Of a stretch of DNA of 20,000 nt, positions 1 through 20,000 are shown piece by piece (positions within the stretch are counted from its first letter, which is position 1; every line of letters begins with the position of its first letter). The notes beneath the pieces are model-generated. The model ran no database searches. It was not told where the DNA came from and was given only the letters and a program-made list of their open reading frames with translations. Both the position numbers and the translations under genes were made by a program. Location: the IMG/VR virus record IMGVR_UViG_3300025751_000004, one strand, 5' to 3'. Origin of the DNA: an uncultured virus (IMG/VR IMGVR_UViG_3300025751_000004). Taxonomy: Duplodnaviria > Heunggongvirae > Uroviricota > Caudoviricetes.

Positions 1-522
1 ATAAAAACTGGAGAGCCTCTGCCAATGGAGTTTGAGTTTGCCCAAAATTTTTTAGACAGACTAGCAGATAAACGAGGCGTAAAGTTTTGTGAACGCAAGA
101 TGGGCGTCACTGAAGATCTGAAAGCCTGTGGGTTCTACGACAAAGAAGCGTGGTTCCGTGGCATAGCTGATCTGCTTATAATTGATGTGATAGGCGAAGT
201 CGCGTGGGTTATTGACTACAAAACATCTAACTCGTCACGGTACGCGGACAAGGGACAGCTAGAGTTGATGGCCCTATCCGTATTTGCACACTTCCCAGAA
301 ATAAAAACAGTACGCGCAGGGTTGGTTTTTGTGCTAGTAAATGACTTAGTGAAACACACCTACGAGGTGCATGATAAAGCAGACTTGTGGGAGAAGTGGA
401 TTAAGAAGTTCAACGCTATGAAAGCCGCAGCAGAAGCAGACACGTGGAACGCCCGTCCTAACGGGTTATGTAAAAGGCACTGTCCTGTGGCGGAGTGCAT
501 ACACAACGGAGCGAACTCGTAA
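1..522 (+). CDS. PD-(D/E)XK (Cas4/RecB-like) phage exonuclease, 5'-truncated
   Basis: Motifs RGIADL...VIDYKT, GQLELMA and C-terminal LCKRHCPVAEC (three Cys of a Cas4/AddB-type cluster). The frame is open from base 1 (IKTGEPLPM), so the true start is probably upstream of the window rather than at 25. Confidence 0.85.
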   Translation: MKTGEPLPMEFEFAQNFLDRLADKRGVKFCERKMGVTEDLKACGFYDKEAWFRGIADLLIIDVIGEVAWVIDYKTSNSSRYADKGQLELMALSVFAHFPEIKTVRAGLVFVLVNDLVKHTYEVHDKADLWEKWIKKFNAMKAAAEADTWNARPNGLCKRHCPVAECIHNGANS

Positions 523-791
523 TGCCGTACAAAAACCCTAAAGACCGCAAGAAGCAGACTAATAAACCTGTTGGCAGTAAGCCGTTTGAGGCGCGTATGG
601 AGCGCCAACGTGCGCGGCGTAAGATGGACCGCGAGGGGGTAGATAGAAATAACAACGGCAAAGCTGACAAGCGTGAGGGCAAAGACATCAGCCACAAAAA
701 AGCCTTGAGTAAAGGTGGTTCTAACAAAGACGGTGTGACAGTAGAAAACCGCAGTAAGAACCGTGCAAGGAACTATAAAAAGAAAAAGTAG
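522..791 (+). CDS. Small basic protein with degenerate HNH-like motif (89 aa, MPYKNPKDRK...)
   Basis: ATG at 522 overlaps the nuclease stop (TAATG), a better start than 495. GKDISHKKALSKGGSN...NRSKN resembles the phage HNH pattern DxDHxxPLSxGG; no Zn-binding cysteines. Confidence 0.7.
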   Translation: MPYKNPKDRKKQTNKPVGSKPFEARMERQRARRKMDREGVDRNNNGKADKREGKDISHKKALSKGGSNKDGVTVENRSKNRARNYKKKK

Positions 792-799
792 GAGAACAA

Positions 800-2335
800 A
801 TGAAGATTTTAGATGGTAAGGCGCTGCTACTCAAGCTGCGCAATCCAAACCGTGTCACCTCTATTATTCCAAAAAGCAAACAAATAGATAACAACGAAGT
901 GCTTGTGAAATGGGATATTGATGCGGCTCACAAGCTGCGTAACCTTAACATCCAAGCTCCGTCACCTATCGACACCCAGTATAATTGGTCAGGGCAACAC
1001 ACTCCGTTTGCCCATCAGAAGAAAACGTCTTCGTTCTTTACCATGAATAAGAAAGGCTTCTGCTTCAACGAGCAAGGCACGGGTAAAACAGCAAGTGCGA
1101 TCTGGGCCGCTGATTTCCTTATAAAGCAAGGCAAGATAAACAGAGTGCTTGTGATATGCCCACTGTCGATTATGGATAGTGCGTGGAGAGCAGACTTACA
1201 CACGTTTGCCCCGCACCGTACTGTGGATGTTGCGTATGGTAGCGCCAAGAAACGTGCAGCCATCGTCAACCAAGGGGCAGAGTTTGTCATAATAAATTAT
1301 GACGGTGTGGAGATAGTGGTAGAGGAGGTACTCAAAGGTGGCTTCGATCTGGTTATTGTGGACGAGGCTACCCACTACAAGAATGCACGGACTAAGCGTT
1401 GGAAGACACTTCGCAAGATAGTAGGCGACGACACTTGGCTGTGGATGATGACGGGTACTCCCGCCGCACAATCCCCTCTTGATGCGTATGGCATTGCGAA
1501 GCTGATTAATCCAGATGCAGTTCCGAGGTTCTACAGTTCGTTCCGCGATACGGTTATGCAGCAGATTACACAGTTTCGTTGGGTGCCCAAAGAGAACGCT
1601 AATGAGATTGTATTTAACGCGTTACAGCCAGCCATACGGTTTACCAAGAAGGAATGTCTCGATTTGCCAGACATGACATACGTCAAACGTAAGGTTGAGT
1701 TGACCAAACAACAAACAAAATACTATGAAATACTCCGTAAGAAGCTGGTGATGAAGGTAGGTAGCGACGAGGTGTCTGCCATAAACGCTGCCGCAACCAT
1801 GAACAAGTTACTTCAGATCAGTGCAGGCGCAGTATACACCGATGACGGTGACGCGTTAGAGTTTGACATAAAGAACCGCTACCAAGTGCTGAAAGAAGTT
1901 ATAGACGAGAGTAGCCAAAAGGTCTTGGTATTCGTGCCATTCAAGCACACTATCGACGTGCTAGTATCCAAGCTACGGTCTGACAACTTAACAGCAGAAG
2001 TGATTCGCGGCGACGTGCCAGCACACGCCAGAACCGACATATTTAAAAGGTTTCAAACTGATACTGACCCCAAGATATTGGTGATACAGCCTCAATCAGC
2101 AGCACATGGTGTGACTTTAACTGCGGCGAATACTGTGGTATGGTGGGGTCCGACTTCTTCACTGGAAACGTACTCGCAAGCGAATGCTAGGGTTCATAGA
2201 TCAGGACAGAAGCATCCGTGTACAGTCGTACAATTGCAGGGGTCGGGTGTAGAGAAGCGCGTGTACTCTTTGCTTGATAAACGCATAGATGTGCACACAA
2301 AAATGATCGACTTGTACAAAGAACTGCTTGACTAA
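800..2335 (+). CDS. SNF2-family (SF2) DNA helicase/ATPase
   Basis: Motif I EQGTGKT, Ia LVICPLS, II VDEATH, III MTGTP, V SAAHGVTL, VI QANARVHRSGQ; RBS AGGAGAACAA at 790-799. Confidence 0.95.
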   Translation: MKILDGKALLLKLRNPNRVTSIIPKSKQIDNNEVLVKWDIDAAHKLRNLNIQAPSPIDTQYNWSGQHTPFAHQKKTSSFFTMNKKGFCFNEQGTGKTASAIWAADFLIKQGKINRVLVICPLSIMDSAWRADLHTFAPHRTVDVAYGSAKKRAAIVNQGAEFVIINYDGVEIVVEEVLKGGFDLVIVDEATHYKNARTKRWKTLRKIVGDDTWLWMMTGTPAAQSPLDAYGIAKLINPDAVPRFYSSFRDTVMQQITQFRWVPKENANEIVFNALQPAIRFTKKECLDLPDMTYVKRKVELTKQQTKYYEILRKKLVMKVGSDEVSAINAAATMNKLLQISAGAVYTDDGDALEFDIKNRYQVLKEVIDESSQKVLVFVPFKHTIDVLVSKLRSDNLTAEVIRGDVPAHARTDIFKRFQTDTDPKILVIQPQSAAHGVTLTAANTVVWWGPTSSLETYSQANARVHRSGQKHPCTVVQLQGSGVEKRVYSLLDKRIDVHTKMIDLYKELLD

Positions 2336-2356
2336 GGCAGTATATATAACTAAATA
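2327..2356 (+). promoter_or_regulatory. Putative sigma70 promoter for the 2382-6804 genes
   Basis: CTTGAC(2327-2332)-N17-CTAAAT(2350-2355), equivalently TTGACT-N17-TAAATA, in an AT-rich gap upstream of RBS GGAGGAGA (2370-2377). Confidence 0.65.
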
Positions 2357-2381
2357 ATACTTTGTACTAGGAGGAGATAAA

Positions 2382-2783
2382 ATGAGCGACTATTCAGACG
2401 CCCCTGCCGATAAGATGACGAAAGCGTATTTAGCCATACGCAACAAACGTGCACAATTAAAGGCAGAGTACACTAAACAGGATGACGAGTTAGCTAGGCA
2501 GCTTGACATCTTGAAACGAGCGCTTCTTAGCTATTGTGAACGTAACAAAGTTGAGAGCGTTAGAACCGACGAAGGGTTATTCTTTCGTTCTCAACGCACC
2601 AAATATTGGACTAGCGATTGGGAAGCCATGCACAAGTTTGTCATAGAACATAAAGTGCCAGAGTTGTTCGATAAGCGTATAAACCAGACGAATATAAAAC
2701 AATTCTTGGAAGAAAATCCTGAGTTAAAACCCGAGGGTCTAAATATAGACACCGAGTATGTTATATCAGTAAGGAAAAAATAA
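2382..2783 (+). CDS. Phage replication-module protein with N-terminal coiled coil, function unknown
   Basis: Strong RBS; helical N-half (YLAIRNKRAQLKAEY...LDILKRALL) followed by VESVRTDEG...SDWEAMHKFV...KPEGLNID, a layout loosely like Gam/Gp157-type phage proteins. Family not confirmed. Confidence 0.7.
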   Translation: MSDYSDAPADKMTKAYLAIRNKRAQLKAEYTKQDDELARQLDILKRALLSYCERNKVESVRTDEGLFFRSQRTKYWTSDWEAMHKFVIEHKVPELFDKRINQTNIKQFLEENPELKPEGLNIDTEYVISVRKK

Positions 2784-3070
2784 TGGCTTCACCCTTCGTA
2801 GCTATAGAAGATCTGGCTAAACACTTAGCCGTATCAGTATCTACCGTTCGCGGCTGGATACGTCAGGGCCACATCCCTGACAACACTTTTCTAAAAATCA
2901 ACAACGTCTATCGTTTTGATAAGGACGCCGTGTCTAACGCATTACTAAGCAAGACTGGCCCCATAAGGTCTGTGGTCGATGGTGATTTCACAGACGCTCA
3001 CCCCGTGCGGTATACATCGCACGATAACACCCAGTACGAGATGGATCTAAGTCTCGACGAAGATATATAG
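2783..3070 (+). CDS. Excisionase/MerR-like helix-turn-helix DNA-binding protein
   Basis: IEDLAKHLAVSVSTVRGWIRQGHIP...VYRFDKDAV is a typical HTH_17/Xis pattern; translationally coupled to the upstream gene (TAATG). Confidence 0.85.
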   Translation: MASPFVAIEDLAKHLAVSVSTVRGWIRQGHIPDNTFLKINNVYRFDKDAVSNALLSKTGPIRSVVDGDFTDAHPVRYTSHDNTQYEMDLSLDEDI

Positions 3071-3081
3071 GAGAACGACAA

Positions 3082-3807
3082 ATGGCTGCACCATACGTTA
3101 TAAAGAATGTGGAAGCCCTATGGCCCAAGCTGGACCGTACTTATGCTTTCGATCAAAAGGCAAACCAGAGTATGCCGTGCGATCCGATGGCACCAAACGC
3201 TGAGTATTCCATCGAACTGAAGATGGATAGCGAAACCGCCAAGCATCTATACATTGCTATGGTAAAATCCTATCAGGCTAACAAAAAACCAGATTGGCCT
3301 GATAAACCTGCTAACCCTATGACTAAGCACGACGATGGCACCCGCACCGTCAAGTGCATACTCAAAGGCCAATACAACGGTGAAAAGACCCGTAAGCCTC
3401 TACAGTTTGATTCCAAGAACAATCCTATGGATGATGACTTTCAGTTGACTACGGGCAGCAAGATCAACATTGCTGTAACCTTTTATCCGTATAAATACAT
3501 GCAGAACGAGCCAAGCGTTTCTCTGCGTATAAAACAGGTCCAAGTCCTTCAGTTGGCAGAACGCACTATGCGTAGCTTGTTTGATACAGTGGACGATGGC
3601 TATACTAAATCTTCTGAGAGCGTGTTTGGGAACAACGTAGTAGACATGCCACAGAAGAAAGAGCCAGAAGTAGACCTAACAGGTTTTGACGAAGACAACG
3701 GTTCCCCTGCCGAACCAGAACCAGTCAAGGTTGAGAAAAAAGCAGCGGCAGCGGGTGCGTCCCAAAGTGCTACGCTAGATAGCATACTAGACGAGTGGGA
3801 TGACTAA
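3082..3807 (+). CDS. ssb: Single-stranded DNA-binding protein (T7 gp2.5/DUF2815-like)
   Basis: N-terminal ALWPKL, AEYSIEL, LTTGSKINIAV, VSLRIKQVQVLQL, and an acidic tail ending LDEWDD; located between helicase and primase. Confidence 0.8.
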   Translation: MAAPYVIKNVEALWPKLDRTYAFDQKANQSMPCDPMAPNAEYSIELKMDSETAKHLYIAMVKSYQANKKPDWPDKPANPMTKHDDGTRTVKCILKGQYNGEKTRKPLQFDSKNNPMDDDFQLTTGSKINIAVTFYPYKYMQNEPSVSLRIKQVQVLQLAERTMRSLFDTVDDGYTKSSESVFGNNVVDMPQKKEPEVDLTGFDEDNGSPAEPEPVKVEKKAAAAGASQSATLDSILDEWDD

Positions 3808-3814
3808 TTAAACA

Positions 3815-3844
3815 GCGCGGTCTTTCGGGGCCGCGCAAACTTTT
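3815..3844 (+). terminator. GC-rich hairpin after ssb: weak terminator or mRNA stabiliser
   Basis: GCGCGGTCT-TTCG-GGGCCGCGC (3815-3836; two G:U pairs) followed by AAACTTTT, an imperfect U tract. Confidence 0.6.
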
Positions 3845-3860
3845 ACGGGAAGAGAACACA

Positions 3861-6602
3861 GTGAGCACTGAAATATTTTTACGTTCTGTGCTAGGGGAAG
3901 ACGGTCACTATTGCCTGTGGTGCAATAAAAGCAAAAAAGACATCAAACAGGAATTTTATCCGTCAGTCGAGCGTTTATTAGAACGAGCAAATGAGTTAGA
4001 CGCAGAAGGGTACAATGTATTCTTCGCCCTTGGCACGTACAAAGAACCCCTGTTGGGTCGCAAACAAATTAATGTCGTGCAGATGAAGTCTTTCTTTGTC
4101 GATCTTGATTGTGGTCCGAGCAAAGAGTTCCCTACGCAAGCAGACGCGATTGAGGCGCTGCGTAGATTTTGTAAGACTAACAAGCTGCCTAGACCAACAA
4201 TCATAAACTCCGGTAACGGGTTACATGTATACTGGCCTTTGAGTTCAGCAGTGGACGAGAAGACTTGGTTCCCAGTTGCGGAGCGGCTCAAGCAGCTATG
4301 TGCTGACCAATCATTCTGGGCGGACCCTTCACGCACATCTGATTCTGCTAGTATATTACGTGTACCAAACACTCACAACTACAAGAGTGATCCACCTAAA
4401 CCTGTCGGGCTTATCAACGATTACTATGCGGACCCCATAGATTTCTTAGACTTTGAAGAACGTGTGGGCGGCGGTGTGATACCAGTTCCGTCTAAGTTTA
4501 CTCCCAGTGCGTACAGAGACACATTAAACAAACAATCCTCTGGCAGCTTTAAGCGTTTGCTAGAGAAAACAGCCAAAGGGCAAGGCTGCGCACAGATAGA
4601 GTACATAATACAGAACCAAGAGAGTATCTCCTATGACATGTGGAGAGCAGGTTTATCTATTGCAAAGGTGTGTACGGACGGGGACAAGGCCGCAAAATTG
4701 ATGTCTGCCAGTCACCCCGATTACGATTATAACGAGACAATCCGCAAGATGATGGATACGGGTGGGCCACAATACTGCACCACATTTGCGGGCCATAACC
4801 CTGATGGCTGCGCGGGCTGTCCCAATGCGATGCTCATAACAACTCCTGCACAACTGACAACTATTGTGGAAGAAGCGGAACCTACTCCTGAGATACCCGA
4901 ATACCCTGCACCGTACATGCGCGGCAAGCATGGGGGTGTATACATGCGTACCAAAGATGAAGAGGGTAACCCAAAGGAAGATTTAATATACCTCAATGAC
5001 TTCTATGTAACGCGTAGACTGCATGATGTTGAACAGGGAGAGGTGGTTGCATTTGCTCTGCACTTACCAAAGGACGGGGTGCGAGAGTTCACAGTCCCTC
5101 TTATGGCTATTACTTCGCGGGAAGAGTTCCGCAAGCATATGGCTATGAAGGGTATAACTTCTTATGGCGATGATTTGGCTAGGCTTATGAAATACGTACA
5201 AACATGGGTGAATGAATTGCAGCAGACAGGCGCAGCGAGCGAGGCTCACCAACAGTTCGGGTGGGTTGATGACAACACTATGGAAGAGTTTGTTCTTGGG
5301 GATAAACTTATCAAGGCGCACACTATAGAGTATAACCCGCCTTCGTCTAAAACCGCAGGGTTCGTGGAAGCACTTACAGCAAAAGGGAGCGCAGAGCGTC
5401 AGAAAGAGATACTTGGGTTCTTCAATGTAGAGGGTCTTGAGTTGCACCAGTTTGTTATCTGCATGGGTCTAGCGTCACCTCTGATGCCACTGAGTGGGCT
5501 GTTTAGCTTCGCAACGCACTTGTATGGCGGGTCAGGGGTAGGGAAAACCACTGCTATGTATTGTAACTCTGCGATGTGGGGCGACCCGCATTTCCTAACT
5601 TTAGGCCAGAGAGACACGCCAAACTCACGTATGTCTCGGGGAGAGATATACAAAAACCTGCCACTAAACTCTGACGAAATGTCAAACATGAGGCCATTTG
5701 ATGCGTCTGATTATGCGTATCAGATTGCGGAAGGTAAACAACGTAACAGGTTACAGGGTAGTGCCAACGTAGAACGCTATCGAGGGAAGCCGTGGCGGTT
5801 GCAGGGGTGTTCGTCTGGTAACATAAGTCTCCATGAATTACTTCAGAAGTTGAAGGCTGACCCAGAAGCAGAGATGCAGCGTATACTGGAGTTCACCGTT
5901 GATCCCAACCTAAAAGCTATCATTGATAAAGATAAAACTGACGCGCTTTATAAAGACATACAATCTAATTACGGGCATTTTGCTGTGCCGTATATACAAT
6001 ATGTTATACAGAACCGTGCAAAAGTGGTTCAGTTGTACGCCAACATAAAAGAGCGATTAGATAAGGCTGCAGATTTGTCGGCAGTTAATCGTTTCTATTC
6101 CGCAGGGTGCACAAACGTGCTTGTGGCTGCAACACTTGGAAAGGCTATGGGCGTAATAGATTATGACGTAAAGCGTTTGTTCGTGTGGGTCGTCAATGAA
6201 TTAATACGGGCCAAAGGAGCGATCAGCGATACAGGCGTAGACACTAAGTCTATACTTGCAGATTTTGCTAGAGATAATTGGGGCAACATCCTTAAAATCA
6301 AAAGCACTGACGATGGTAGAGATGAAATTGCAAGTTTGGTAGTACCTGAGAGTATGCCCAGAAACAAACTGGCAGGGCGTTTTGAAACCGACACAAAGAT
6401 ACTTGCTATCCCTACAAAAGAGTTCAAGAAATATCTAGTGGATCAGTATATAAACTACGGCTCCACAATAAAAAGCCTAAAAGAGGACATGGGCGCAGTT
6501 ATGAAGAGTGTGTATATGACCAAGGGTACTAGCCTAAACTTACCTTCTCAATATTGCGTGGTTGTTAAGATGGAGGAGTTAGGTGAAACCCCTGAGACTT
6601 GA
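3861..6602 (+). CDS. Primase-helicase fusion: AEP-family primase, Cys-rich accessory domain and DUF927-type P-loop ATPase
   Basis: AEP motifs FFVDLD, IINSGNGLHVYW and DSASILRVPNTHNYK; Walker A GGSGVGKTT (5526-5552); Walker B LNSDE; GTG start with RBS GGGAAGAG. Confidence 0.9.
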   Translation: MSTEIFLRSVLGEDGHYCLWCNKSKKDIKQEFYPSVERLLERANELDAEGYNVFFALGTYKEPLLGRKQINVVQMKSFFVDLDCGPSKEFPTQADAIEALRRFCKTNKLPRPTIINSGNGLHVYWPLSSAVDEKTWFPVAERLKQLCADQSFWADPSRTSDSASILRVPNTHNYKSDPPKPVGLINDYYADPIDFLDFEERVGGGVIPVPSKFTPSAYRDTLNKQSSGSFKRLLEKTAKGQGCAQIEYIIQNQESISYDMWRAGLSIAKVCTDGDKAAKLMSASHPDYDYNETIRKMMDTGGPQYCTTFAGHNPDGCAGCPNAMLITTPAQLTTIVEEAEPTPEIPEYPAPYMRGKHGGVYMRTKDEEGNPKEDLIYLNDFYVTRRLHDVEQGEVVAFALHLPKDGVREFTVPLMAITSREEFRKHMAMKGITSYGDDLARLMKYVQTWVNELQQTGAASEAHQQFGWVDDNTMEEFVLGDKLIKAHTIEYNPPSSKTAGFVEALTAKGSAERQKEILGFFNVEGLELHQFVICMGLASPLMPLSGLFSFATHLYGGSGVGKTTAMYCNSAMWGDPHFLTLGQRDTPNSRMSRGEIYKNLPLNSDEMSNMRPFDASDYAYQIAEGKQRNRLQGSANVERYRGKPWRLQGCSSGNISLHELLQKLKADPEAEMQRILEFTVDPNLKAIIDKDKTDALYKDIQSNYGHFAVPYIQYVIQNRAKVVQLYANIKERLDKAADLSAVNRFYSAGCTNVLVAATLGKAMGVIDYDVKRLFVWVVNELIRAKGAISDTGVDTKSILADFARDNWGNILKIKSTDDGRDEIASLVVPESMPRNKLAGRFETDTKILAIPTKEFKKYLVDQYINYGSTIKSLKEDMGAVMKSVYMTKGTSLNLPSQYCVVVKMEELGETPET

Positions 6603-6804
6603 TGACTTAGACCCTGATGGAGTAAAAATTATCATAAAGTGGGACAAGTTTGTAGTCGGTGCCTCGGTGTTTATACCCTGCATAAATACAGAGAAAGCTA
6701 AAAAACAACTAAAACGTGTTGCAAGTTTGAAACAATACCAAATTTCCATTCAAATTCGCATAGAAAATGGTATGTGGGGGGTTCGCACTTGGCGACACCT
6801 GTGA
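6583..6804 (+). CDS. Small hypothetical phage protein (73 aa), possibly DNA-binding
   Basis: GTG start with GGAGGAG RBS, overlapping the primase end; basic sequence WDKFVVGASVFIPC...GVRTWR. Confidence 0.7.
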   Translation: MKPLRLDDLDPDGVKIIIKWDKFVVGASVFIPCINTEKAKKQLKRVASLKQYQISIQIRIENGMWGVRTWRHL

Positions 6805-6812
6805 TATATAGT
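6782..6812 (+). promoter_or_regulatory. Possible promoter for the junction small RNA
   Basis: TTCGCA(6782-6787)-N17-TATATA(6805-6810) with TG at 6802-6803 (extended -10 position); alternative -10 TATAGT at 6807-6812. Predicted start near 6817. The -35 match is weak. Confidence 0.35.
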
Positions 6813-6816
6813 GGTT

Positions 6817-6885
6817 AACAGCTTGGTCCATACAACCAGTTGTTCTCCTCCCTGATCTGACCCTGCTTCGGCAGGGTCTTTTTTT
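6817..6885 (+). ncRNA. Candidate small regulatory RNA with anti-Shine-Dalgarno seed
   Basis: Hairpin AACAGCTTGGT/ACCAGTTGTT (6817-6844), C/U-rich linker CTCCTCCCTGATCT, then a Rho-independent terminator; 6838-6852 is complementary to RBS regions at 790-799, 2370-2377, 3069-3079 and 3847-3858. Confidence 0.5.
6859..6885 (+). terminator. Rho-independent terminator at the module junction
   Basis: Perfect 8-bp stem GACCCTGC-TTCG-GCAGGGTC with a cUUCGg tetraloop, followed by T7. Confidence 0.92.
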
Positions 6886-9800
6886 AATCAGTTAGGTCTT
6901 GCCATCCACTAGCGAGTTCTAGCAGAGCGTTTCTGTACGTAGGACTGAGTGCCACACCTTGGTACATGTCAACACTGGTTTGCATATGTTGGTTCAAAGA
7001 ACGCTTCAAACTCTTTGGAGTTATAGATGCCTCAGGATGGCGTTGATTGAATTTTTGCATTTCTCTAAGCACGTTATCAACTTCCTCTGCATCATTCTGA
7101 CGCAGGGCGATGTAGTATTTCTTAGATAGCGCGGATCGTTTGGTGGTGACTGCCTTGTCTATACCCTTCAAGATACGATTCTGGTCTGATGCTTGTGTGT
7201 AACCTGCGGGTTGTATGCCAAACAGAACACCCATAAGCTCACCAGTTGTCATATCATCGTATATTGGGTCACCTCTTCGACTAAACGCACCGCCCTCTCT
7301 GCTGTAGCGACCGAGGCTCTTCATTGCGTTAGCCACCGCTGTAGGCATTAGGTTTTCAATACCTCGTTCAATCTGCCCGTCCCCAAGATCTTCTATGCCT
7401 CTTTTAATCCGGTTCGCGGTGGATAGTGCAGGACCACCGATGTAGAACCCTATCGTTTCTTCAAGCGATGGATCGGGGTTATATTTGTTCTCTTGTATAA
7501 GAAGACCCGTCAACGCGGTACGTGACGCAGTATCTAGCCCTGTCATTGCGACCAACGGACCTTTATACCAGCCTTCACCAACTTGCTTCCGCACAAGCGT
7601 ATCAAAATCTTCCTCTTCATCGTCAAGGAAGAACATGTTAGCTACAAGACGTACTGCACCGTACAAGGGTATACCTTGCAGACCCGCAAAGAATATCGCC
7701 GAACCGTGTAGACCAAGAAGAATCTTAAACGCTTCTTTACGCTGTTCTGGGGGCAACTCTTTATCGACCATGCGTTTTGCCTGTTTAAACATACTGTAGT
7801 ACATCTGCAGTCCGTAGCTCTTGTACATCATGGCTACGCGCCCGATGTTCTCTCGTGCTATACTTGGTCCTGTCTCTAGGTACGCACCGCCATTGGCCTC
7901 TTGCGTCATATAGATAGCTTCCTCGGCGGCTTCCATTTGCTGCTCTGCTGTTGGATTACCTTTGCCCTGTGTAAGTTTATCTATATGTAGGTTGTACGCT
8001 GCAATCATAGTGTTCTGACGGTTGAACTTTTCCACGTGGTTAAACATGTACGCAGATATGCCAGATATTTTATCCATAATACTGCCAGCAAGTCCCCCCA
8101 AAGTGTCTTTGCGCATAGCCCTAGCTGCTTCGTCCAGACCCATACTTTCTGCGAGATAACTTTGGCTAACAAGCTGCCCTCTCTCGGCTGCTACTTTTAC
8201 AAGCGGCATGAGATCCAATAGTTTTTGACGCATTGCATCTGACATCTTAGGATCAGCTTTCAAAGATATATTACCGTCGAGATCCATGTCATAGAAGTCA
8301 CGCAAAGAGTTTTTAACATTAATAGTTATACTGCCTGCTTCTTTAATCGCCTTTGTTGTCTGGGCATAACCATACTTGGCCCCCAGATAGGGCATAACAA
8401 ACAGAGGTATCTGCGTCCCGTTAACTAGCGCAGAGGATGCGTTAAACCCAATAGTATATATAAACGCAAATTGGTTTAACCTGCGACCCACGTCTTCGAT
8501 AGATTTGTTTTTAGCGCCCTGCCGTGCAAATCTGGCTCTACCTAACAACTCAGCCTTCATATCCTCAAACACCGTATCAGGAACGTCTGCGGGCTGTTTC
8601 GTGTTTTCAATCTGCTGTTCTATCAAACGTATTTCAGAAGCGGATTTTAGTTTCTGAGCTTGGACCGCTAGGTCGTAACCTTTTGTCCTAAGAGCATACA
8701 TGCTGTCTTCTTTGTAGCCGGGTGTTCCTTTACGTTTTTGCATGGATTTGGCAAAAGACGTTTCAGGTAAGGTCGCTACAAACAACCGCATAACTTCTTC
8801 TATAGCCTTATTATCTACCTTCGCCTTAGATAGAGAGTTCACAACTTCAAACACAAACGAGGTGGGAGGTGCTTTTTGATAATCTTCAATAGTTGCCTCG
8901 CCTTGAGATCTTTGGACATTTTCAAATCTAGGATCAGCTTTTATTTCCCTGAAGGCTCGGTCGCGTTCAGCTTTTGTAGTAAACATCTCAACTACATACT
9001 CGGCACGTGCGTTGGGGGCGTTCTTAACACCGTAGCTCAACTTGTAGTTGCCTTCTCGAACAAGAGGGAAGTAAACCTCTAACGTACCAGCATCAAACAA
9101 CTTCGCATAAATATCTTTCTTGACCTTTTTGACTACTTCAGGATCGCCTGCCTCTTTGCCAAGCTCGTCAATCTCTTTCAGAACAATCTTTCTTGCCCGT
9201 TCAAACTGTTCTTTGTAGTGATCACGCATCTTCTTATAAGCTAATTGCCCGTCTCCACGAAGCCCGTTATCGCGTATAAACTTCTGTTGTTCGTTCCAAA
9301 TGTCTAATTTAGTCTTATTTGGGTCGTCACTTTGCTTGTCTTTGTAGGCTTTTATAGCTTCTGCCTGCGGCAAAAACGCATCTACTTGGTAAATGGTTGC
9401 ACCGAAATCTTGACTGTAAATAAGTTCATTTAGTTTGGCTACTTTCGCATTACCCATGCGCTTGAAGATACCTTGAACCTCTTCGACTACCTTCTTTGTA
9501 GCTTCCGTAGCAGTGGTTATTGACCCGCGTTGACGGAGGATTGCGTTATCTAAATCAAACCCTAACCTGTTAAACCCAGACACTTGTGCTATATCTGCTA
9601 GTCCTTGGTTAGCCACCAGCTTTAAATATATTCTACGCGGTAAGGTTTTTGCGCTGTCTAAGAAATCTCTAGCTGTATCCACAAATTCTTGTTTATCAAA
9701 ATCTTTAACCAGTTTGCGTTGCACATCGCCTATGTCTTTTGCTACCTTTTTGACGTTATCGCGTGTGCCAAGAGCAATCTTACCCGTCAGCCTTTGCGGT

Positions 9801-12800
9801 GGCGTAGGGTTAAGTATCGCCATAGTCATAGCATCAAAATCATCTAAGGATTCTAAGTTGCGTTTTTCTCCTAAAATTCTTGTAGCAATAAAATTTTCTG
9901 CCATCTGCAGGTAGCTAATATTTTTATTATTCATCATTGCGGATAGGCTTGACCGAAACTCTGGGTTAGACATAGCTTCAGAAAAGAACTCTTTTATATC
10001 CGTTGAGCCATATTCTCCATCAAACTCTTTCTGTACCTCTTTAAACAAACGTTGAATGGCTACAGGTACACCTTGTTCTATTTTTCGCAGGGTCAAGGCA
10101 TGAGCTATTTCGTGCATGAGCGCGTGAGCATCTCTGCCTTTATCCTTATCTAACGTGATGGTTTTTGTTTCAGGATCATAGATTCCGTCAGCCAAATCGC
10201 CGTATCCGTCTTTAAGGTTTTTCTTGGTCGTTAGCTTTATTCCAGACCCTTTGAGCAACTGCTTAAATCTAATCGCATACGCTTTTAACTTAGGAAAACC
10301 TTTAGTTTTAGATAGTATGTCTAACGCAGTATCTATATCGCCAGCATCTATGGCTGCTTCTAAGGGTTCATTTTTAATTTTTAATTTGTTTACCGCTGCG
10401 TATAACGTTCCCCCGTTCTTCACGTCATCTATAAGATCGGGGCTAAAATCGGCTTTAGGATCTTTTTGTGCAGCGTTTTTTATTTCGTTAAGTATGGTAC
10501 GGTCCCTGCGAGACATGGGCATACTTTCCATAAACTCAACAGTTTTCTTGGCGTTATCAAAAGAACTACCCCGCTCTAGCTCCTCTCGTTGACGCGCAGA
10601 CGTAGGGTCTTCGTCTCTACCATATTGCTCTGTGTCTGGACGTCTTGCGCGTTTGCTGCCTGCAGCCCCACTTTCATTTATAACTGTGTAATACGCCTCG
10701 CGTATGCCGTCTGCAGGATTAGGGTATTTTGTTAGGTATTCGTTTACCGCATCTTTTGCCCCGGATACTTTTTTAAATAGCCTAGCGTTAACTTCTTCAG
10801 AGAATGGGTTAGACGTTACAGGTATTTCCTTAGCATTACGCCGTTGTGCAGGAGTGGCTTTGCGGTTGAATTGTTCTGCTATTTTATCGGCAGAACTTAC
10901 GTCTTGACTCTCTTGAGTTGCGGATGACTTTTTTGGTGCCAAGGACGGATCATCCACAAAAGTGACTTTTCCTGTCCGCTTTAGCGTTTTAGGATCAACC
11001 TTATATCTTGTGCCGGGTATTACTTGCCGTACTGGACGATCTTGAGATTCCATAGCGGTGCCACGCCCTATGGCGTACACGTCGGACCTTGCAGTGGCTG
11101 CTGCGCTTTCAGCTAATGGTCCTGCATCCACTACATTTCGTGCAACAAGAACCTGACCTGCTTTAAGAGATTTTGCGCGGCGATCAAATTCGGTTTTGTC
11201 GAACGTGCGTCCGACTGGAAATTCTATTATCTCTTTAGCATCTACCGTAAAGGGAACTACCTCTCCATCAGAGCCACTATAACTTGCGGCTACGTCACGA
11301 TTAGTAGAAGCAAACACATTATACCCATCACGAGGAGCAAGTTTGTCTTTAACGTCTTTGCGATTAAGACCCCGATAGAGTGTTAGTGCTTTTAATGCAC
11401 TAGGCTGTGTTCCTTTTGCAGTAGTAGTATCGACAGCATCACGCCTGACATCTCCCAGTCCATCCGTCTCAGATGTTTCAGGCTTTTTGGCACCTGTATC
11501 TTTTGCCTGTCTTGCTCCCATGCCTTGCTGATTACGAGCATCGCTCTCTCTACGTCCTGTGTCGTCAGGTGTGGGGGGAGATGAAAGTTCTCCAATTGTG
11601 TCAGATCCACTTGGTTCTCCTTCGTCAATGGTATAATTAGGTTTCGGGAGCAGTAACGGTTCTGTCCTTGTAATAGGCTCTTGCCCCATCCGACGGGCTT
11701 TTTCTCTGCCCACTGCAGCCATAAGATCGTCTTGGTCTTCACGTTGACCCTTGTAAGACTCTGCTACCCGTTGGTCTGGCCCCTGCCTCTCCGGTGTTTT
11801 AGCACGTTCTTCTTCTACTATCTGTTCAAATTTATTTATTGGTATGTTACGGGCAGCAAGTTTCTCCCTGTCAAACGTTACATCGCCCGTTCTTTCAAGC
11901 TCTTCACGTACTTCTTTGCGAGTATCTATAAGTTCTTGGTTTGCGGTTAGTGACCCTATCCCTAAATCACTCAAGTCGGTTACCCGTTCTCTCGAACTTA
12001 CAAACTCAGGTCCACGGTCAGCTTGCCGCTGCATTGCCTGCACCGCTGTGCGTCTTAGATTAGACATCTCTCCTGATGGGGCCGATTCAGGCGGTCCTTG
12101 TCTTTCGGGTATTTTTGCGGCTTCTTCCTCTATAATCTCAAAGACCCGTTCAGGAGCAATACCATCTACGCCTTCTACAGCTTTTACTTGGTTGGCTAAC
12201 TCTGCAGTTAATGCGCCATCGGTATTAGGTAGCTCTTCTGCTAACAAAGCTCTTATTTGCTGCTCTGCAGGAGATTCGCCTGTGGATGTGGGTCCAGCCC
12301 TGCGGGTATTAGCAAACGAATCCACAAGGAACTGTAAGGCTGCACCCGCTGTACCACCTAACGCGCCAGCTTCTGCGGTACCACTATCAAACACAGCACG
12401 ATCTGGGTTGTACCCACGTTCTACAAGGTTTTGCACGACTTCAGACGCAGCTTCTTGGGCACCTTCTGCGCCACCTGTTATAGCCGCACGTTGTATCTTT
12501 TGTCCGATACCAGTAACTTCTTGTGGCCCAAGATCATTTATAAGTTTACCTACAAACGGCAATTTAGCTACTGGTACAATCCGACTAATTGGCAATGCCT
12601 CTGCCGCACCTGCAAGTAAAATACGCGGGTCATTTACAGCACGTTGACGTTCTTCTGGGGTGGCCCCCGCTGCTCGCGCTCTTTCACTAGCCTCGCCTTT
12701 AGCCACATTAACACCAAGACCAAGGCCCGCTGCTGTACCTGCTAAACCTGCACCAACACCAACTACAGGAGCGGCAGCGGCAACACCCGCTATTCCAGCG

Positions 12801-13204
12801 GCAAACCCACCAATAGACCCAAATGCCTGCCCAATTTTGTATGACAGCGCATCTGCTCCTGCGTCACTTGGCTTGAGCACTGAGGCGATGCCCATGATCT
12901 TATCACGTGCTGCTGTTTCTGCGTCTTCTCCAAGTAAAGTCCCTGCACCTAACGCGGCAGTCTCAAAGGTACCGACGAACCCAGCCTGCGTGCCACGTGC
13001 CAGTCTCCCCAACATAGTGCCATCGTCAGGCTCTGATTCTGGTAGGTCGAACCGGGTGAATAGCGGTTTGGTTTCGCGGGCGCTTTCACGTTCAAACCGC
13101 TTCTTTCGTTCAGCAAGACGTATGATGAAGGCATCTGACGCGTCCTCCGGTGCCTCTACTTTAACCTCGCTTCCGTCAGGGAAATCAACGGTAAACATTT
13201 TCAT
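6884..13204 (-). CDS. Large internal virion (ejection) polyvalent protein with ART-like, zincin metallopeptidase and PLxRFG-like regions
   Basis: 2106 aa. Gly/Ala-rich hydrophobic segment near aa 125-170; LYRG...VFASTNRDVAASY (11065-11386); HEIAH (10100-10114) with downstream EFFSEAMSNPEF; YFPLVREG (9050-9073); long helical C-terminal half. Confidence 0.8.
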   Translation of the reverse strand: MKMFTVDFPDGSEVKVEAPEDASDAFIIRLAERKKRFERESARETKPLFTRFDLPESEPDDGTMLGRLARGTQAGFVGTFETAALGAGTLLGEDAETAARDKIMGIASVLKPSDAGADALSYKIGQAFGSIGGFAAGIAGVAAAAPVVGVGAGLAGTAAGLGLGVNVAKGEASERARAAGATPEERQRAVNDPRILLAGAAEALPISRIVPVAKLPFVGKLINDLGPQEVTGIGQKIQRAAITGGAEGAQEAASEVVQNLVERGYNPDRAVFDSGTAEAGALGGTAGAALQFLVDSFANTRRAGPTSTGESPAEQQIRALLAEELPNTDGALTAELANQVKAVEGVDGIAPERVFEIIEEEAAKIPERQGPPESAPSGEMSNLRRTAVQAMQRQADRGPEFVSSRERVTDLSDLGIGSLTANQELIDTRKEVREELERTGDVTFDREKLAARNIPINKFEQIVEEERAKTPERQGPDQRVAESYKGQREDQDDLMAAVGREKARRMGQEPITRTEPLLLPKPNYTIDEGEPSGSDTIGELSSPPTPDDTGRRESDARNQQGMGARQAKDTGAKKPETSETDGLGDVRRDAVDTTTAKGTQPSALKALTLYRGLNRKDVKDKLAPRDGYNVFASTNRDVAASYSGSDGEVVPFTVDAKEIIEFPVGRTFDKTEFDRRAKSLKAGQVLVARNVVDAGPLAESAAATARSDVYAIGRGTAMESQDRPVRQVIPGTRYKVDPKTLKRTGKVTFVDDPSLAPKKSSATQESQDVSSADKIAEQFNRKATPAQRRNAKEIPVTSNPFSEEVNARLFKKVSGAKDAVNEYLTKYPNPADGIREAYYTVINESGAAGSKRARRPDTEQYGRDEDPTSARQREELERGSSFDNAKKTVEFMESMPMSRRDRTILNEIKNAAQKDPKADFSPDLIDDVKNGGTLYAAVNKLKIKNEPLEAAIDAGDIDTALDILSKTKGFPKLKAYAIRFKQLLKGSGIKLTTKKNLKDGYGDLADGIYDPETKTITLDKDKGRDAHALMHEIAHALTLRKIEQGVPVAIQRLFKEVQKEFDGEYGSTDIKEFFSEAMSNPEFRSSLSAMMNNKNISYLQMAENFIATRILGEKRNLESLDDFDAMTMAILNPTPPQRLTGKIALGTRDNVKKVAKDIGDVQRKLVKDFDKQEFVDTARDFLDSAKTLPRRIYLKLVANQGLADIAQVSGFNRLGFDLDNAILRQRGSITTATEATKKVVEEVQGIFKRMGNAKVAKLNELIYSQDFGATIYQVDAFLPQAEAIKAYKDKQSDDPNKTKLDIWNEQQKFIRDNGLRGDGQLAYKKMRDHYKEQFERARKIVLKEIDELGKEAGDPEVVKKVKKDIYAKLFDAGTLEVYFPLVREGNYKLSYGVKNAPNARAEYVVEMFTTKAERDRAFREIKADPRFENVQRSQGEATIEDYQKAPPTSFVFEVVNSLSKAKVDNKAIEEVMRLFVATLPETSFAKSMQKRKGTPGYKEDSMYALRTKGYDLAVQAQKLKSASEIRLIEQQIENTKQPADVPDTVFEDMKAELLGRARFARQGAKNKSIEDVGRRLNQFAFIYTIGFNASSALVNGTQIPLFVMPYLGAKYGYAQTTKAIKEAGSITINVKNSLRDFYDMDLDGNISLKADPKMSDAMRQKLLDLMPLVKVAAERGQLVSQSYLAESMGLDEAARAMRKDTLGGLAGSIMDKISGISAYMFNHVEKFNRQNTMIAAYNLHIDKLTQGKGNPTAEQQMEAAEEAIYMTQEANGGAYLETGPSIARENIGRVAMMYKSYGLQMYYSMFKQAKRMVDKELPPEQRKEAFKILLGLHGSAIFFAGLQGIPLYGAVRLVANMFFLDDEEEDFDTLVRKQVGEGWYKGPLVAMTGLDTASRTALTGLLIQENKYNPDPSLEETIGFYIGGPALSTANRIKRGIEDLGDGQIERGIENLMPTAVANAMKSLGRYSREGGAFSRRGDPIYDDMTTGELMGVLFGIQPAGYTQASDQNRILKGIDKAVTTKRSALSKKYYIALRQNDAEEVDNVLREMQKFNQRHPEASITPKSLKRSLNQHMQTSVDMYQGVALSPTYRNALLELASGWQDLTD

Positions 13205-13215
13205 GGCGAATTACC

Positions 13216-15258
13216 TTATCGTCTCACGTAGGGCGTATTTCCACCTGCTATACCTTGTTGCCCGCTTACTCCACTACCACTTAAAGAACTGCCCAGTAAC
13301 GCTATCGCGTCTTGATATAGATTTAACATGCCTGAAGCCTCAAAATACAAATCTGTCTGGTATCTTGCGGCCTTTCGTATCTCATCCCCAGTTAGATCAT
13401 TCTGTAGCTGTACAATTCTTGTTTCAATGGCTGACTTTTTGTCGTCTGTTGCCATTGACAGTCGCTCTCTAAGCGCATCTATCTCCCCCTGTTTTGTATC
13501 TGTAAGCACTTTTAATTCTGCGAGATATGTGGCGTCGTAGCTTGCCATGACTTTACCAGCTAGTGTTCTTGCTTCTGAGTCTAGTTCGGCTTCTCTTTTT
13601 GCTAAATCTTTAGCTGCTGCAGCGTCTAGTCGTTTGTTCTCTGTTATGTCCGCTATTTGCGCTTTCTCTAGCTCAATCTCGTTTGTTCTTTTCATTACTG
13701 CTATTTTGGCTCGTTCAAGATCTTTCTGTTCAGCATCGCTTTGCTGCTCGTATGCAAACTTTTTAGCATCTAGGTCAGCCCTCAAAACGGCTAAATCTCT
13801 GTTTGCTGCAATATTCTGACTGGTTCTAAGGTTAGCCATTTTCTCAGAGTATACTTTTGCAGCAGCCTCTACAGAAGCCTTCCCTAAATCACTGTCTATC
13901 TGCATACCTGAAAGTTCAATCGCATTACGCTCATTAAGTCTGAGGCGTCTGTCTTTCTTCTGGCGCATACGTTCATTCATTGCACCTGCGGCAATCCCTG
14001 CCCCCGTATAGCCAAGGCTAGATGTACCCGCAGCGCCTATGAGAGCCGCCGTAATCCGATTAAATTTTTCCTGTTGTGGGTTATAGTCGCGTTCTTCTAG
14101 CGCTTTCATTTCGTCAATCATCCGCTCTATAGCGTCTGCTTTTTCAGAACGACCAGTTATTTCGTCTACGAGACTCGCAGTGTCTCGGAAACTAGACTGC
14201 ATATCAATGTCGCCTACACCCATCGGATCTTTTATTTGGCCCCGCTTAAACTCGTCTAACGTGCTATCTAGTGTATTTTGTGCAATTGTAGGTTTTTCTC
14301 GTGGAGCGTCTGCTTCCACTGCGGCAGGGGGTGCTAATTGCGCAGGTGCCTTTGGCGGCGATAAAGAAGCTATGCCCGAGCCTTGCTCGCCAACAGTGGT
14401 GGGCAACATCGTTTCCGTACCCCGTTCTGCAGCTAGCGATAGTTGATTTGAAAAATCAAAATCTCCTATTTTATTTACAGGGTTTGTAGAGTCAGGTATG
14501 CCAATGTTTGCCCCTAAAGCAGAAAAGTTAAAGGGAGCACGCTCTCCCGCAGTTGCTTCAAACTTAGGAAAATCATCTACCAAAGCCTTTAATTGTCTAG
14601 CAGTAAGTTCACCCGAATTTAATTTTTTTATGATTTGCTGTGCTTGAGCGCGTCTAGTGCTAGACTGTGTTTTAAAAAACCCTTCTCCGTAATTAGCATA
14701 AGGCCCATATGCGTTACGAACCGCCGCTCTTAGTTGGTTTTGTGGGTTATTAGGATCGTCTACAGGGGAAGTGAGAAAATCTGCTATTGTTCCAATACCG
14801 CGCCCAAACGGTGAACTATCGACACTACCGCCCGGTTGGAATGCAACAATGCCCCCACCAGCTAACTTCTTAGGCATAGCACCTTTAGGCATACCCGGCA
14901 TACCCATCAAACCAGCTATACCCCCTTGTGGTCTAGGAGTTCTGGCTAATTGCTGCAGGTTTTTTGCTTGATCACTTTGACGTTTACCTAAAATACCCTG
15001 CGTTTGCTTGACCATATCATCTTTAGTACGCTGAAACATTTCTTGTTCGCGCTGCTGTTTTATGGTGCTGGGCTGTTGTTGCATCTTTAACTGCATATCA
15101 CGTGCAGCAGCATCCTTCTCAGACTTCAACTTTTGCAGGGCAAGAAGGTCTATCAACTCTTGGTTTTGTTGGTAACGTTGCATAAGCTGTTGTGGGTTAG
15201 CACGATATGCGTCCACTTTACGTTGGACCTCTTCGTCCATTCTCTGGTTACCGATCAT
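13216..15258 (-). CDS. Putative internal virion/ejection protein (680 aa)
   Basis: Gln-rich coiled-coil N-terminus, GG motifs (PQGGIAGL, LAGGGIVAFQPGGSV), a hydrophobic AALIGAAG...GIAAGA segment and a coiled-coil C-terminus; lies directly upstream of the giant protein. Function inferred from context. Confidence 0.65.
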   Translation of the reverse strand: MIGNQRMDEEVQRKVDAYRANPQQLMQRYQQNQELIDLLALQKLKSEKDAAARDMQLKMQQQPSTIKQQREQEMFQRTKDDMVKQTQGILGKRQSDQAKNLQQLARTPRPQGGIAGLMGMPGMPKGAMPKKLAGGGIVAFQPGGSVDSSPFGRGIGTIADFLTSPVDDPNNPQNQLRAAVRNAYGPYANYGEGFFKTQSSTRRAQAQQIIKKLNSGELTARQLKALVDDFPKFEATAGERAPFNFSALGANIGIPDSTNPVNKIGDFDFSNQLSLAAERGTETMLPTTVGEQGSGIASLSPPKAPAQLAPPAAVEADAPREKPTIAQNTLDSTLDEFKRGQIKDPMGVGDIDMQSSFRDTASLVDEITGRSEKADAIERMIDEMKALEERDYNPQQEKFNRITAALIGAAGTSSLGYTGAGIAAGAMNERMRQKKDRRLRLNERNAIELSGMQIDSDLGKASVEAAAKVYSEKMANLRTSQNIAANRDLAVLRADLDAKKFAYEQQSDAEQKDLERAKIAVMKRTNEIELEKAQIADITENKRLDAAAAKDLAKREAELDSEARTLAGKVMASYDATYLAELKVLTDTKQGEIDALRERLSMATDDKKSAIETRIVQLQNDLTGDEIRKAARYQTDLYFEASGMLNLYQDAIALLGSSLSGSGVSGQQGIAGGNTPYVRR

Positions 15259-19700: not shown

Positions 19701-20000
19701 TGAACGAACTTCTGCTTCTGTGGTTTGACGCGGGTCAACGAACTGTCCAACCGCTGTTTCTTGCGCGGCTTGATCTAGTTGTCCAACAAACTGTGCAACC
19801 TGCTCATCGGTGGGTGTAAAGCCCAGTGCAGCAAATGCTGAACGAACTTCTGCTTCTGTGGTTTGACGCGGGTCAACGAACTGTCTAACCGCTGTTTCTT
19901 GCGCGGCTTGATCTAGTTGTCCAACAAACTGTGCAACCTCTTCATCGGTGGGTGTAAACCCTGCAGCTTCAAATGCTGAACGAACTTCTGCTTCTGTGGT
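16776..20000 (-). CDS. Large acidic repeat protein (at least 1074 aa, N-terminus outside window), probably virion-associated
   Basis: Manual translation shows no stop between 18530 and 20000 in the frame of the 584-aa ORF (TTEAEVRSAF...QEDVDRFVGQFDPE), so the GTG at 18530 is internal. Contains two repeat families and a dockerin/EF-hand-like loop. Confidence 0.88.
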   Translation of the reverse strand, partial: TTEAEVRSAFEAAGFTPTDEEVAQFVGQLDQAAQETAVRQFVDPRQTTEAEVRSAFAALGFTPTDEQVAQFVGQLDQAAQETAVGQFVDPRQTTEAEVRSAFEAAGFTPTDEEVAQFVGQLDQAAQETAVRQFVDPRQTTEAEVRSAFAALGFTPTDEQVAQFVGQLDQAAQETAVGQFVDPRQTTEAEVRSAFEAAGFTPTDEEVAQFVGQLDQAAQETAVRQFVDPRQTTEAEVRAAFDALGFTPTDEQVAQFVGQLDQAAQETAVGQFVDPRQVTDEEARQFFANLGYEATDEEIAEFVAQVPETEQAAAIASYVDPRQVTLAEVQAIAAEEGLTLTDALAATYVGQGVAANYQTEKLSAARAEYDPLATTLEEATEFFANTGYSATPEEIAQFVASKTEETQTSAIGAYVDPRQVTAVEAEEFLSAIGYQPSQSDIEQFTGQLNDENYQVAQKAAINEYVDPRFFSASEARAAYEELGLVDVAQEDVDRFVGQFDPESEDYDPAGFEAFQRAKLESYLPTATYNLMSKTIGSPSVADDPNTPEDESKEATGIYKAIEEGSAKDAALQEAIDALSTNLGLTEAEVLKQLGTTKEDLEKAIGDVETSLGEDIGDLADVIGTPAVEDDPDTLDVDETQDPTGIFADIADLVASGSTRDEAIQTIADNLGTTKTALETAIANIDVTEQITSVIGTELGTPATDDAEATGIFADIADLVASGSTRDDAIQAVADNLGTTKTDLEKAIGAVETSLGEDISGLAGILGTPEVLDDPNTLDVDESQDPTGLFATIKQYENAGVERDEALSLAIGDVSTALGTTETNLLNTIGTTKDDLLAIIGGPATDDTAATGIYASIDEGLGALSNEIANIIGKPAQNVTQVDIDFVADTIAQDQVLSELQIQQYDVTGDGIVNDADLNLLQQAFAGQDVQLADTSMFTPATGLYGTIDTQQQTIQDLQSQIDAQTALNTELNTNLNTQLNTLINTQQAQQEAAKRQQQQQGLMQLAAAARGVKVTPPDPFQLKYMYDIGGESIFATPTQESLFVSPYDTRRQATGFLSGGMVEDETDALLRILGG
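17440..18400 (-). repeat. Degenerate intragenic repeat G(T/S)P..DD(P.T...DE....)TG(I/L)(F/Y)A.I...LGTT, about 5 copies
   Basis: Visible in translation; near-identical DNA blocks at 17785-17876/17983-18074 (offset 198) and 17730-17777/18159-18206 (offset 429). Confidence 0.85.
18500..19172 (-). repeat. Diverged copies of the 46-aa DPRQ repeat (46, 50, 46, 50 aa, plus a partial fifth)
   Basis: Translated units VTDEEARQFFANLGY...YVDPRQ, VTLAEVQ...EYDPLA, TTLEEATEFFANTGY...YVDPRQ, VTAVEAEEFLSAIGY...YVDPRF, then FSASEARAAYEELG...FVGQFDP. Confidence 0.85.
19173..20000 (-). repeat. Near-perfect coding tandem repeat, 138-bp (46-aa) unit, six copies in window, alternating A/B (276-bp higher-order unit)
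   Basis: GCTGTTTC recurs at 19201, 19339, 19477, 19615, 19753 and 19891. Unit: TTEAEVRSAF(E/A)A(A/L)GFTPTDE(E/Q)VAQFVGQLDQAAQETAV(R/G)QFVDPRQ. Confidence 0.97.

Follow-up and report, generated by a model that had tools for sequence, protein, structure and literature searches.

Organization of the locus

The window, i.e., the whole stretch of 20,000 nucleotides that was analysed, corresponds to positions 44058-64057 of a 64,057-base phage contig (G000). Its plus strand encodes a PD-(D/E)XK nuclease, a SNF2 helicase, a 133-aa protein, an HTH protein, a T7 gp2.5-like SSB, a DUF927 primase/helicase and a 73-aa protein, and its minus-strand genes encode virion and ejection proteins. Upstream of the window, the early arm also encodes an AAA ATPase, a DUF2201 protein, a DUF6378 protein and DNA polymerase A. 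The 133-aa protein weakly resembles Mu Gam, Gp157 and DUF7307; within its family, 13 of 20 members matched PF22709 and 8 matched PF07352, all of them weakly. Neither an integrase nor an antirepressor was found among the 34 proteins scanned, and several early ORFs have no family.

The cultured relatives are distant. The helicase matched those of Pseudomonas phage Rollin and Rhizobium phage RHph_TM3_14A at 39%, the terminase those of HTVC027P and DSL-LC04 at 47%, and the endolysin that of Roseobacter phage CRP-811 at 42%, Roseobacter phages being the nearest for this protein. From the endolysin likeness we would guess an alphaproteobacterial host; a prophage or host search returned two weak matches only.

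The main early promoter lies outside the window (G000 C1:33019-33047) and reads TTGACA-N17-TGTGATATACA, with TATACA as the -10 box; the early arms of G001, G002 and G004 begin with equivalent strong promoters. The early control region (G000 C1:31700-34300, L227) also contains a repeated palindrome, TCGGGCA-N1/2-TGCCCGA, in at least four full copies, with a half copy preceding the ATPase leader; it may be operator-like or form an RNA hairpin. Positions 19173-20000 of the window, continuing at the contig start, form a 138-bp tandem array of six copies that are 91% alike, which encodes 46-aa repeats in a large minus-strand protein and within which the contig ends.

The early and late arms converge on a region with the following features:

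6583-6804, plus strand: 73-aa gene, the last early gene, hosting the predicted sRNA promoter
6782-6787, plus strand: predicted -35 box, TTCGCA, 17 nt before the -10 box and within codons of the 73-aa gene
6800-6810, plus strand: predicted extended -10 box, TGTGA-TATATA, overlapping the TGA stop of the 73-aa gene (6802-6804)
6817-6885, plus strand: predicted sRNA of 69 nt, its start placed by the spacing from the -10 box
6817-6844, plus strand: 5' hairpin, whose 3' arm holds the GUUGUU extension of the seed
6838-6852, plus strand: seed AGUUGUUCUCCUCCC, with UCUCCUCCC as the predicted single-stranded toehold
6859-6885, plus strand: intrinsic terminator with an 8-bp stem (6859-6878), a cUUCGg loop and a U7 tract
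6884-13204, minus strand: 2106-aa last late gene, an ejection protein DarB-like in its C-terminal part

The 73-aa protein had no Pfam or PHROG match and only a weak DUF7303 lead. Its structure model reached a pLDDT of 85, and fold searches with it gave no clear match (best Z 5.3, no E below 0.001), leaving an RNA-chaperone role for this protein unsupported. On the other side, the stop of the 2106-aa gene overlaps the last two U of the terminator U-tract, and the transcript of this gene would run antisense through the sRNA gene.

Promoter, hairpin, seed and terminator of the putative sRNA

The region 6782-6885 reads as a candidate sRNA gene with a promoter, a 5' hairpin, an open anti-SD seed and a terminator. 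The -35 box has TT at its first two places in 23 of 26 lineages, a conservation confounded with the invariant codons R68 and W70 of the 73-aa gene. The TGATA context at the stop gives TGnTAnnnT, with the final T occurring in 20 of 26 lineages. The window has an A at this place, and so has the early promoter at G000 33019; TGTGATATA is common to that promoter and the predicted sRNA promoter. Alphaproteobacterial promoters often lack the final T of the -10 box; the consensus promoter scan, which requires it, did not list the sRNA promoter. The predicted sRNA promoter is built like the main early promoter of the phage and appears to be of the early sigma-70 type.

The hairpin and the cUUCGg terminator of the original prediction were both recovered in the fold, the latter in the terminator scan as well. 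The fold of the stretch had a z of -2.94, with 1 of 200 shuffles equally stable, and stem 1 begins at the equivalent of the predicted start (6817) in most lineages. The hairpin arms covary: in a test that used no structure, with the 5' arm aligned on the predicted start and the 3' arm on the seed, own pairs over 19 lineages reached -7.4 against -4.0 kcal/mol (z -6.9). The seed core has an unpaired probability of 0.84 in the window and of at least 0.8 in 19 of 27 lineages, and is predicted to be paired (unpaired probability below 0.4) in 6 of 27. An A-tract that would enable the terminator to function on the minus strand occurs in only 3 of 65 elements, the terminator being one-way in the other 62. 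No Rfam family reached its gathering score in the window or in 19 relative loci.

Four metatranscriptome runs yielded 30 contig pieces on window positions 1-13500, mostly 99% alike; among the pieces listed, none lies over 6817-6885 and one ends at 6787. Since a 69-nt RNA cannot be seen in contigs of 150-nt reads, the missing coverage at 6817-6885 is uninformative.

Conservation of the unit among related phages

Searches with the 73-aa protein returned 193 loci with 87 distinct downstream sequences, ten of them truncated. The promoter motif, the anti-SD tract and the terminator were complete in 69 of the 77 remaining types (67 recognized by a lenient pattern and two window-type rows that the pattern missed), and the unit is thus conserved with a promoter signature of its own, as the original prediction would lead one to expect. 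Two types have neither promoter nor hairpin and keep the terminator and the C/U tract. In the last six (L212, L215, L048, L136, L131 and L197) the unit is absent, terminator included, and the late-gene stop abuts the 73-aa stop tail to tail where the late frame is readable.

In six types (L067, L078, L126, L130, L132 and L222) tandem repeats of about 10 nt, of the types TGGAGTTGTA, GGAACGTTAC and GGACTTCATT, lie between the 73-aa stop and a promoter motif displaced 25-60 nt from it; the motif moves together with the RNA. The repeat unit corresponds to one helical turn, which suggests protein sites or iterons.

The cultured distant relatives Rollin, RHph_TM3_14A and DSL-LC04 carry no such unit at the junction, as judged by eye or by gene overlap. 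Many early leaders of Rollin (L225) share C[CT]GGAG(AG), of which no complementary intergenic copy was seen in the 43 kb covered. A MAFFT alignment of the units gave no consensus pairs, so that the model R1 was sequence-only. It found only the window, L176 and L194; as it misses true members, its blank result in the cultured relatives and in the rest of G000 carries little weight.

The original prediction left open whether the RNA has its own promoter or is processed from the 3' end of the operon. The former is favoured by TGATA, which marks the 73-aa stop in 56 of the 87 downstream types and was seen at only 8 of the 293 stops of other early genes. Together with the promoter that moves with the RNA and the covarying hairpin, this enrichment argues for an independent plus-strand transcript from about 6817, which on grounds of conservation would have its own promoter and intrinsic terminator. 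We retain processing as an unlikely rival, according to which the element would lack a promoter and, as 3' UTR of an early transcript of 18 kb, would either fold back on upstream RBSs or be excised by RNase E. The element does end the early operon, SorX is reported to be made by processing (as described in PMC9438474), and this rival could accommodate both the two types with a terminator and C/U tract only and the -35 conservation, owing to its confounding with codons. It leaves unexplained why the hairpin begins at the predicted start, and in the promoterless genome G013 none of the 16 leaders carries the seed-complementary tag.

Complementarity of the seed to early leaders

The reverse complement of 6838-6852 is GGGAGGAGAACAACT, confirmed letter for letter. 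Its matches in the leaders of the window are:

790-799, plus strand: predicted target site in the SNF2 helicase leader, AGGAGAACAA, 10/10
2370-2377, plus strand: predicted target site in the 133-aa gene leader, GGAGGAGA, 8/8
3069-3079, plus strand: predicted target site in the ssb leader, AGGAGAACGAC, 11 pairs with one G:U
3847-3858, plus strand: doubtful target site in the primase/DUF927 leader, GGGAAGAGAACA, 11/12
6572, plus strand: GGAGGAG in the 73-aa gene leader

The helicase, ssb and 133-aa matches stand exactly as originally described. The primase match is present, but its mismatch falls inside the SD core and only a short duplex folds; GGAGGAG likewise precedes the 73-aa gene, but as a target it shows no covariation with the seed.

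Over the whole contig, at least three bases are paired beyond GGAG in 10 of 14 early GGAG leaders, compared with 1 of 15 late ones (p 0.0003), which bears out the earlier observation that matches extend past the SD core and that structural-gene leaders match poorly. The pattern AGGAGA[AG][CT][AG]A[CT] has six occurrences on both strands of the 64 kb. The five on the plus strand all stand at early starts, and the single one on the minus strand is the element itself. When all 4096 hexamers following GGAG were ranked against the 14 early leaders, counting G:U pairs, the extension hexamer of the seed itself came first. The tag is carried by about eight leaders in the genome. Three belong to the helicase, to ssb and, with the core only, to the Gam-like 133-aa gene; five lie upstream of the window, namely those of the AAA ATPase (G000 34292), the DUF2201 gene (35568), the genes at 37770 and 40852 and the DUF6378 gene (41594). 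The best site, matching 12/12, is the leader of the DUF2201 gene.

Whole-RNA cofolding with accessibility gave a median of -8.2 for early leaders (n=25) and -4.8 for late leaders (n=44). The top sites were DUF2201 (-17.8), the 133-aa gene (-13.7) and ssb (-12.4), followed by the helicase (-9.7) and the primase (-9.6); one late leader reached -11.3. The proposed sequence of toehold pairing and unzipping of the hairpin is reproduced in the cofolds for DUF2201, helicase and ssb, which open hairpin 1, but not in that for the 133-aa leader, which pairs with the open core only.

Covariation of seed and leaders across lineages

A test proposed with the original prediction was whether the seed covaries with the early leaders. 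A matrix was built from 26 seeds and the leaders of six orthologous genes, the lineages being drawn from a tree of 35 representatives; near-duplicates were left out, and C17, which had no SD-called leaders, was dropped and reused as held-out record L168. Gene starts came from an SD heuristic, seeds were placed by motif and by eye, and the lineages are related. After removal of row and column effects, own seed-leader pairs were 2.1 kcal/mol more stable over the 26 lineages (z -6.6, with p at the minimum attainable in 20,000 permutations). The own seed was also favoured in 11 of 13 sister pairs that do not overlap (sign test p 0.011), so that the covariation was confirmed.

The signal differed among genes. 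The own seed was favoured in 10 of 11 non-zero sister contrasts for the helicase leader and in 10 of 13 for the 133-aa leader. Covariation was weaker for ssb (z -2.2, 4 of 6 sisters), and the primase leader gave 7 of 11 sister contrasts (p 0.27). In the matrix test no signal was found for the hth and 73-aa leaders (z 0.1 and -0.7); these two genes are translationally coupled, their starts overlapping the previous gene. The covariation signal is thus carried by the helicase and the Gam-like 133-aa gene, the primase appearing doubtful and the 73-aa gene unsupported as targets. The replication module had originally been proposed as the set silenced together. Helicase and 133-aa gene remain in this set, but the putative targets extend over the early arm with the best site at DUF2201; the primase is a weak member, and no covariation was seen for the 73-aa and HTH genes.

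Individual lineages illustrate the correspondence. In C5 the seed matches the 133-aa leader at 17/17 positions, across the GTG start codon; in C8 an odd seed, GGGATAG, recurs as GGGATAG in the helicase and 133-aa leaders; and in G015, outside the matrix, a different seed, GGAGACCA, is also found in three early leaders. In 12 held-out records, five of which (G014, L068, L120, L216 and L044) are close to training lineages, the own seed ranked 3, 1, 1, 2, 13, 7, 7, 6, 13, 2, 2 and 4 of 27. In the eight records with enough late genes, its ranks of 26 were 3, 1, 23, 1, 1, 10, 6 and 4 for early leaders and 25, 14, 9, 1, 18, 12, 19 and 3 for late leaders, the high late ranks of 1 and 3 belonging to C10 and C26. 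The seed hexamer fell within the top 54 of 4096 in 9 of 11 genomes; the other two, G004 and G008, failed this test (rank 833 or worse), and C7 and C9 favour foreign seeds over their own.

An ordinary terminator with a chance anti-SD tract, to which we assign a minimal probability, would account for a unit that is dispensable in 6 of 77 types and for the A-rich spacers that are generic in early leaders. Early leaders are in fact GGAGAA-rich even where the unit is lost (A[AG][CT] in 4 of 14 in G011 and 4 of 6 in L197), so that the first two extension letters are generic. This reading is largely refuted by the covariation of seed with leaders and of the hairpin arms, and the held-out and hexamer ranks also stand against it.

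A host-aimed RNA, either a SorX/MmgR mimic or a shut-off RNA, would match phage leaders as a side effect of shared SD usage. We consider it quite improbable, although CUCCUCCC pairs with any strong SD, the endolysin is nearest to those of Roseobacter phages, and the RNA has a sub-threshold likeness to SorX, the toxic sRNA and suhB/MmgR. The covariation is gene-specific and concerns positions in the spacer and the first codons that 16S rRNA does not reach, and a phage with a toxic RNA would be expected to diverge from it in sequence rather than to converge on it.

The mismatches also bear on how the seed is read. With leaders chosen by identity alone, mismatches opposite a seed U or G were G:U-compatible in 34 of 55 cases for own and 239 of 805 for foreign seeds (17 of 28 and 123 of 494 without the clade of the window), as expected from RNA-RNA pairing by a plus-strand RNA; transitions are the commonest neutral change too. 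At the G/T places of the seed own leaders mismatched in 32 of 70 cases, little better than foreign ones (514 of 1051). When mismatches were tallied in bulk over all leaders, own and foreign seeds could not be told apart (identity 0.396 and 0.390); this tally took the first GGAG as its anchor and was dominated by non-targets.

This G:U bias weighs against reading the element as a same-sense motif. As such a motif it might be bound by a protein, serve as a decoy at the 3' terminus of late mRNA, represent a leader copy that was inverted and has since decayed, or provide a minus-strand RBS; together we regard these possibilities as very unlikely. The late transcript probably reads through the site, and in the window GGAGGAG is followed by a TTG at 9 nt (6 aa) and an ATG at 13 nt (40 aa), the latter start being kept in the four nearest lineages. 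The original prediction had itself named the RBS of a small minus-strand ORF as the competing explanation, and such an ORF was not conserved: a minus-strand start 4-10 nt after the SD occurs in only 10 of 28 lineages, four of which have at least 20 aa, no peptide is common to the lineages, and the frame from the 13-nt start runs to 40, 10, 10 and 55 aa. Promoter, hairpin and U-tract all face the plus strand.

Proposed mechanism and significance

We consider it likely that the RNA acts in trans to repress translation from the early arm of the phage itself. An RNA that is complementary to the early ribosome-landing sites and changes in step with them probably turns early-gene translation down as a group. 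From the sequence, complementarity, co-evolution and covarying structure described above we infer the following course, from transcription by host sigma-70 through toehold pairing and initiation block to its purpose. Host sigma-70 RNA polymerase would start at about 6817, using the promoter embedded at the 3' end of the 73-aa gene, and stop at the terminator, both ends being placed by conservation. The open UCUCCUCCC would pair with the Shine-Dalgarno sequence of early cistrons and, according to the computed cofolds, the pairing would extend through UUGUU and open the base of hairpin 1, an extension available only to leaders with the tag GGAGAACAAC or its G:U variants. With SD and spacer covered, 30S entry would be blocked, an established mechanism of such RNAs.

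With promoters of one type for the RNA and its putative targets, RNA levels would be expected to follow the dose of phage genomes, giving an incoherent feed-forward or dose feedback. If stable, a small RNA of this kind would build up as genomes are copied or co-infect, and would limit the synthesis of the helicase, the Gam-like end-protection protein (a weak assignment), SSB and the ATPase/DUF2201 pair. Among the roles originally envisaged, the early sigma-70-type promoter would fit dose feedback better than a late-induced timer. We give an even chance to delayed negative feedback on early and replication protein synthesis, which would also restrain superinfection by a phage sharing the tag; alternatively, the RNA might serve a carrier state or simply buffer noise. 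Given the one-way terminator, transcription from the late side may continue across the sRNA gene, and the resulting antisense mRNA may titrate the RNA.

A more speculative, and on balance doubtful, extension is that the early RBS spacers of non-integrating phages bear an address tag read by one dose-sensing sRNA, that co-drifting tags and seeds define RNA-coded immunity groups, and that late antisense read-through sets or lifts the brake. If true, lytic or carrier-state phages would possess a circuit for decision and exclusion that needs no protein and through which each phage restrains superinfecting kin that share its tag.

An RNA co-evolving with an early regulon over dozens of aquatic phage lineages would represent a post-transcriptional layer of phage development that is accessible to sequence analysis and to tests that do not require the host, with a natural orthogonal sRNA-RBS pair for reporters in each lineage. 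It bears on how abundant uncultured phages that have no integrase limit replication, persist or exclude kin.

Comparison with known RNAs

Anti-SD seeds are used by alphaproteobacterial sRNA families such as AbcR. Cuckoo/CcsR, with which the original prediction also compared the RNA, has an anti-SD C/U motif as well, and is described as two to four adjacent hairpins, each with CCUCCUCCC in the loop (PMC4615179). The window RNA differs in having one motif, placed in the linker, and a loop that reads UCCAUACA and does not contain CCUCCUCCC, which rules out membership of this family; its layout, with one motif in the linker before the terminator, is SorX/MmgR-like. Several relatives have CCUCCC in the hairpin loop, and in L054, L061, L174, L176, L205, L175 and L183 a second anti-SD tract (CACCUCCCUG, CCCUCCCCUC) lies in the loop of hairpin 1, a cuckoo-like arrangement.

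SorX (RF02784), suhB/MmgR (RF00519) and the Betaproteobacteria toxic sRNA (RF02278) resemble the phage RNA in their size of about 60-75 nt and in one CUCCUCCCUG-type tract just before an intrinsic terminator. Their scores were 27.5 bits for SorX (E 3e-5, gathering 46.6; no match in 19 relative loci), 19.3 bits for suhB/MmgR (gathering 41) and 25.7 bits for the toxic sRNA (gathering 50), all below gathering and driven by the CUCCUCCCUG tract and the terminator. RNAs of the SorX/MmgR type are reported to repress translation at the SD (in the accounts of PMC9438474 and bioRxiv 10.64898/2025.12.09.693200). These RNAs are chromosomal with host targets, whereas the phage seed varies with phage leaders; SorX derives from the 3' UTR of an OmpR-type gene, whereas the gene upstream of the phage RNA is the 73-aa ORF. 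Shared ancestry with these host RNAs is possible.

Phage sRNAs acting on phage genes, as far as they are covered in PMC12197685, mostly have one lysogeny-switch target or are cis-antisense. Our literature search, mostly outside subscription papers, found no description of an RNA of the present kind, and the portion of the supplements of a phage structured-RNA survey (PMC10690425) that was searched gave no match, although the RNA may be listed there without a function. A multi-target variant of phage antisense control, co-evolving with the phage's own early genes, would be new.

The c4 antisense RNA of P1/P7, of 77 nt, is likewise encoded by a phage and acts in trans, blocking translation of a phage mRNA by binding in the region of its RBS, and it sets immunity specificity by sequence, a further likeness, as outlined in PMC12197685. 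The C4 Rfam model was not among the matches up to E 10, nor did it appear at gathering. In the same account c4 acts on one antirepressor mRNA of a temperate phage, whereas here about eight early cistrons would be addressed and no integrase was found among the proteins scanned. The CI RNA of satellite phage P4 also silences the phage's own replication genes by pairing; according to the description in PMC4825925, it is processed from the transcript under control and causes premature termination at seqA/seqC. The present RNA, unlike CI RNA, has a predicted promoter of its own at the far end of the operon and RBSs as its putative targets. As in the c4/CI class, the seed is complementary to, and covaries with, sites in the phage's own mRNAs. 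By analogy, the function of the predicted RNA would be nearest to that of P1/P7 c4 and P4 CI RNA, but with many RBS targets.
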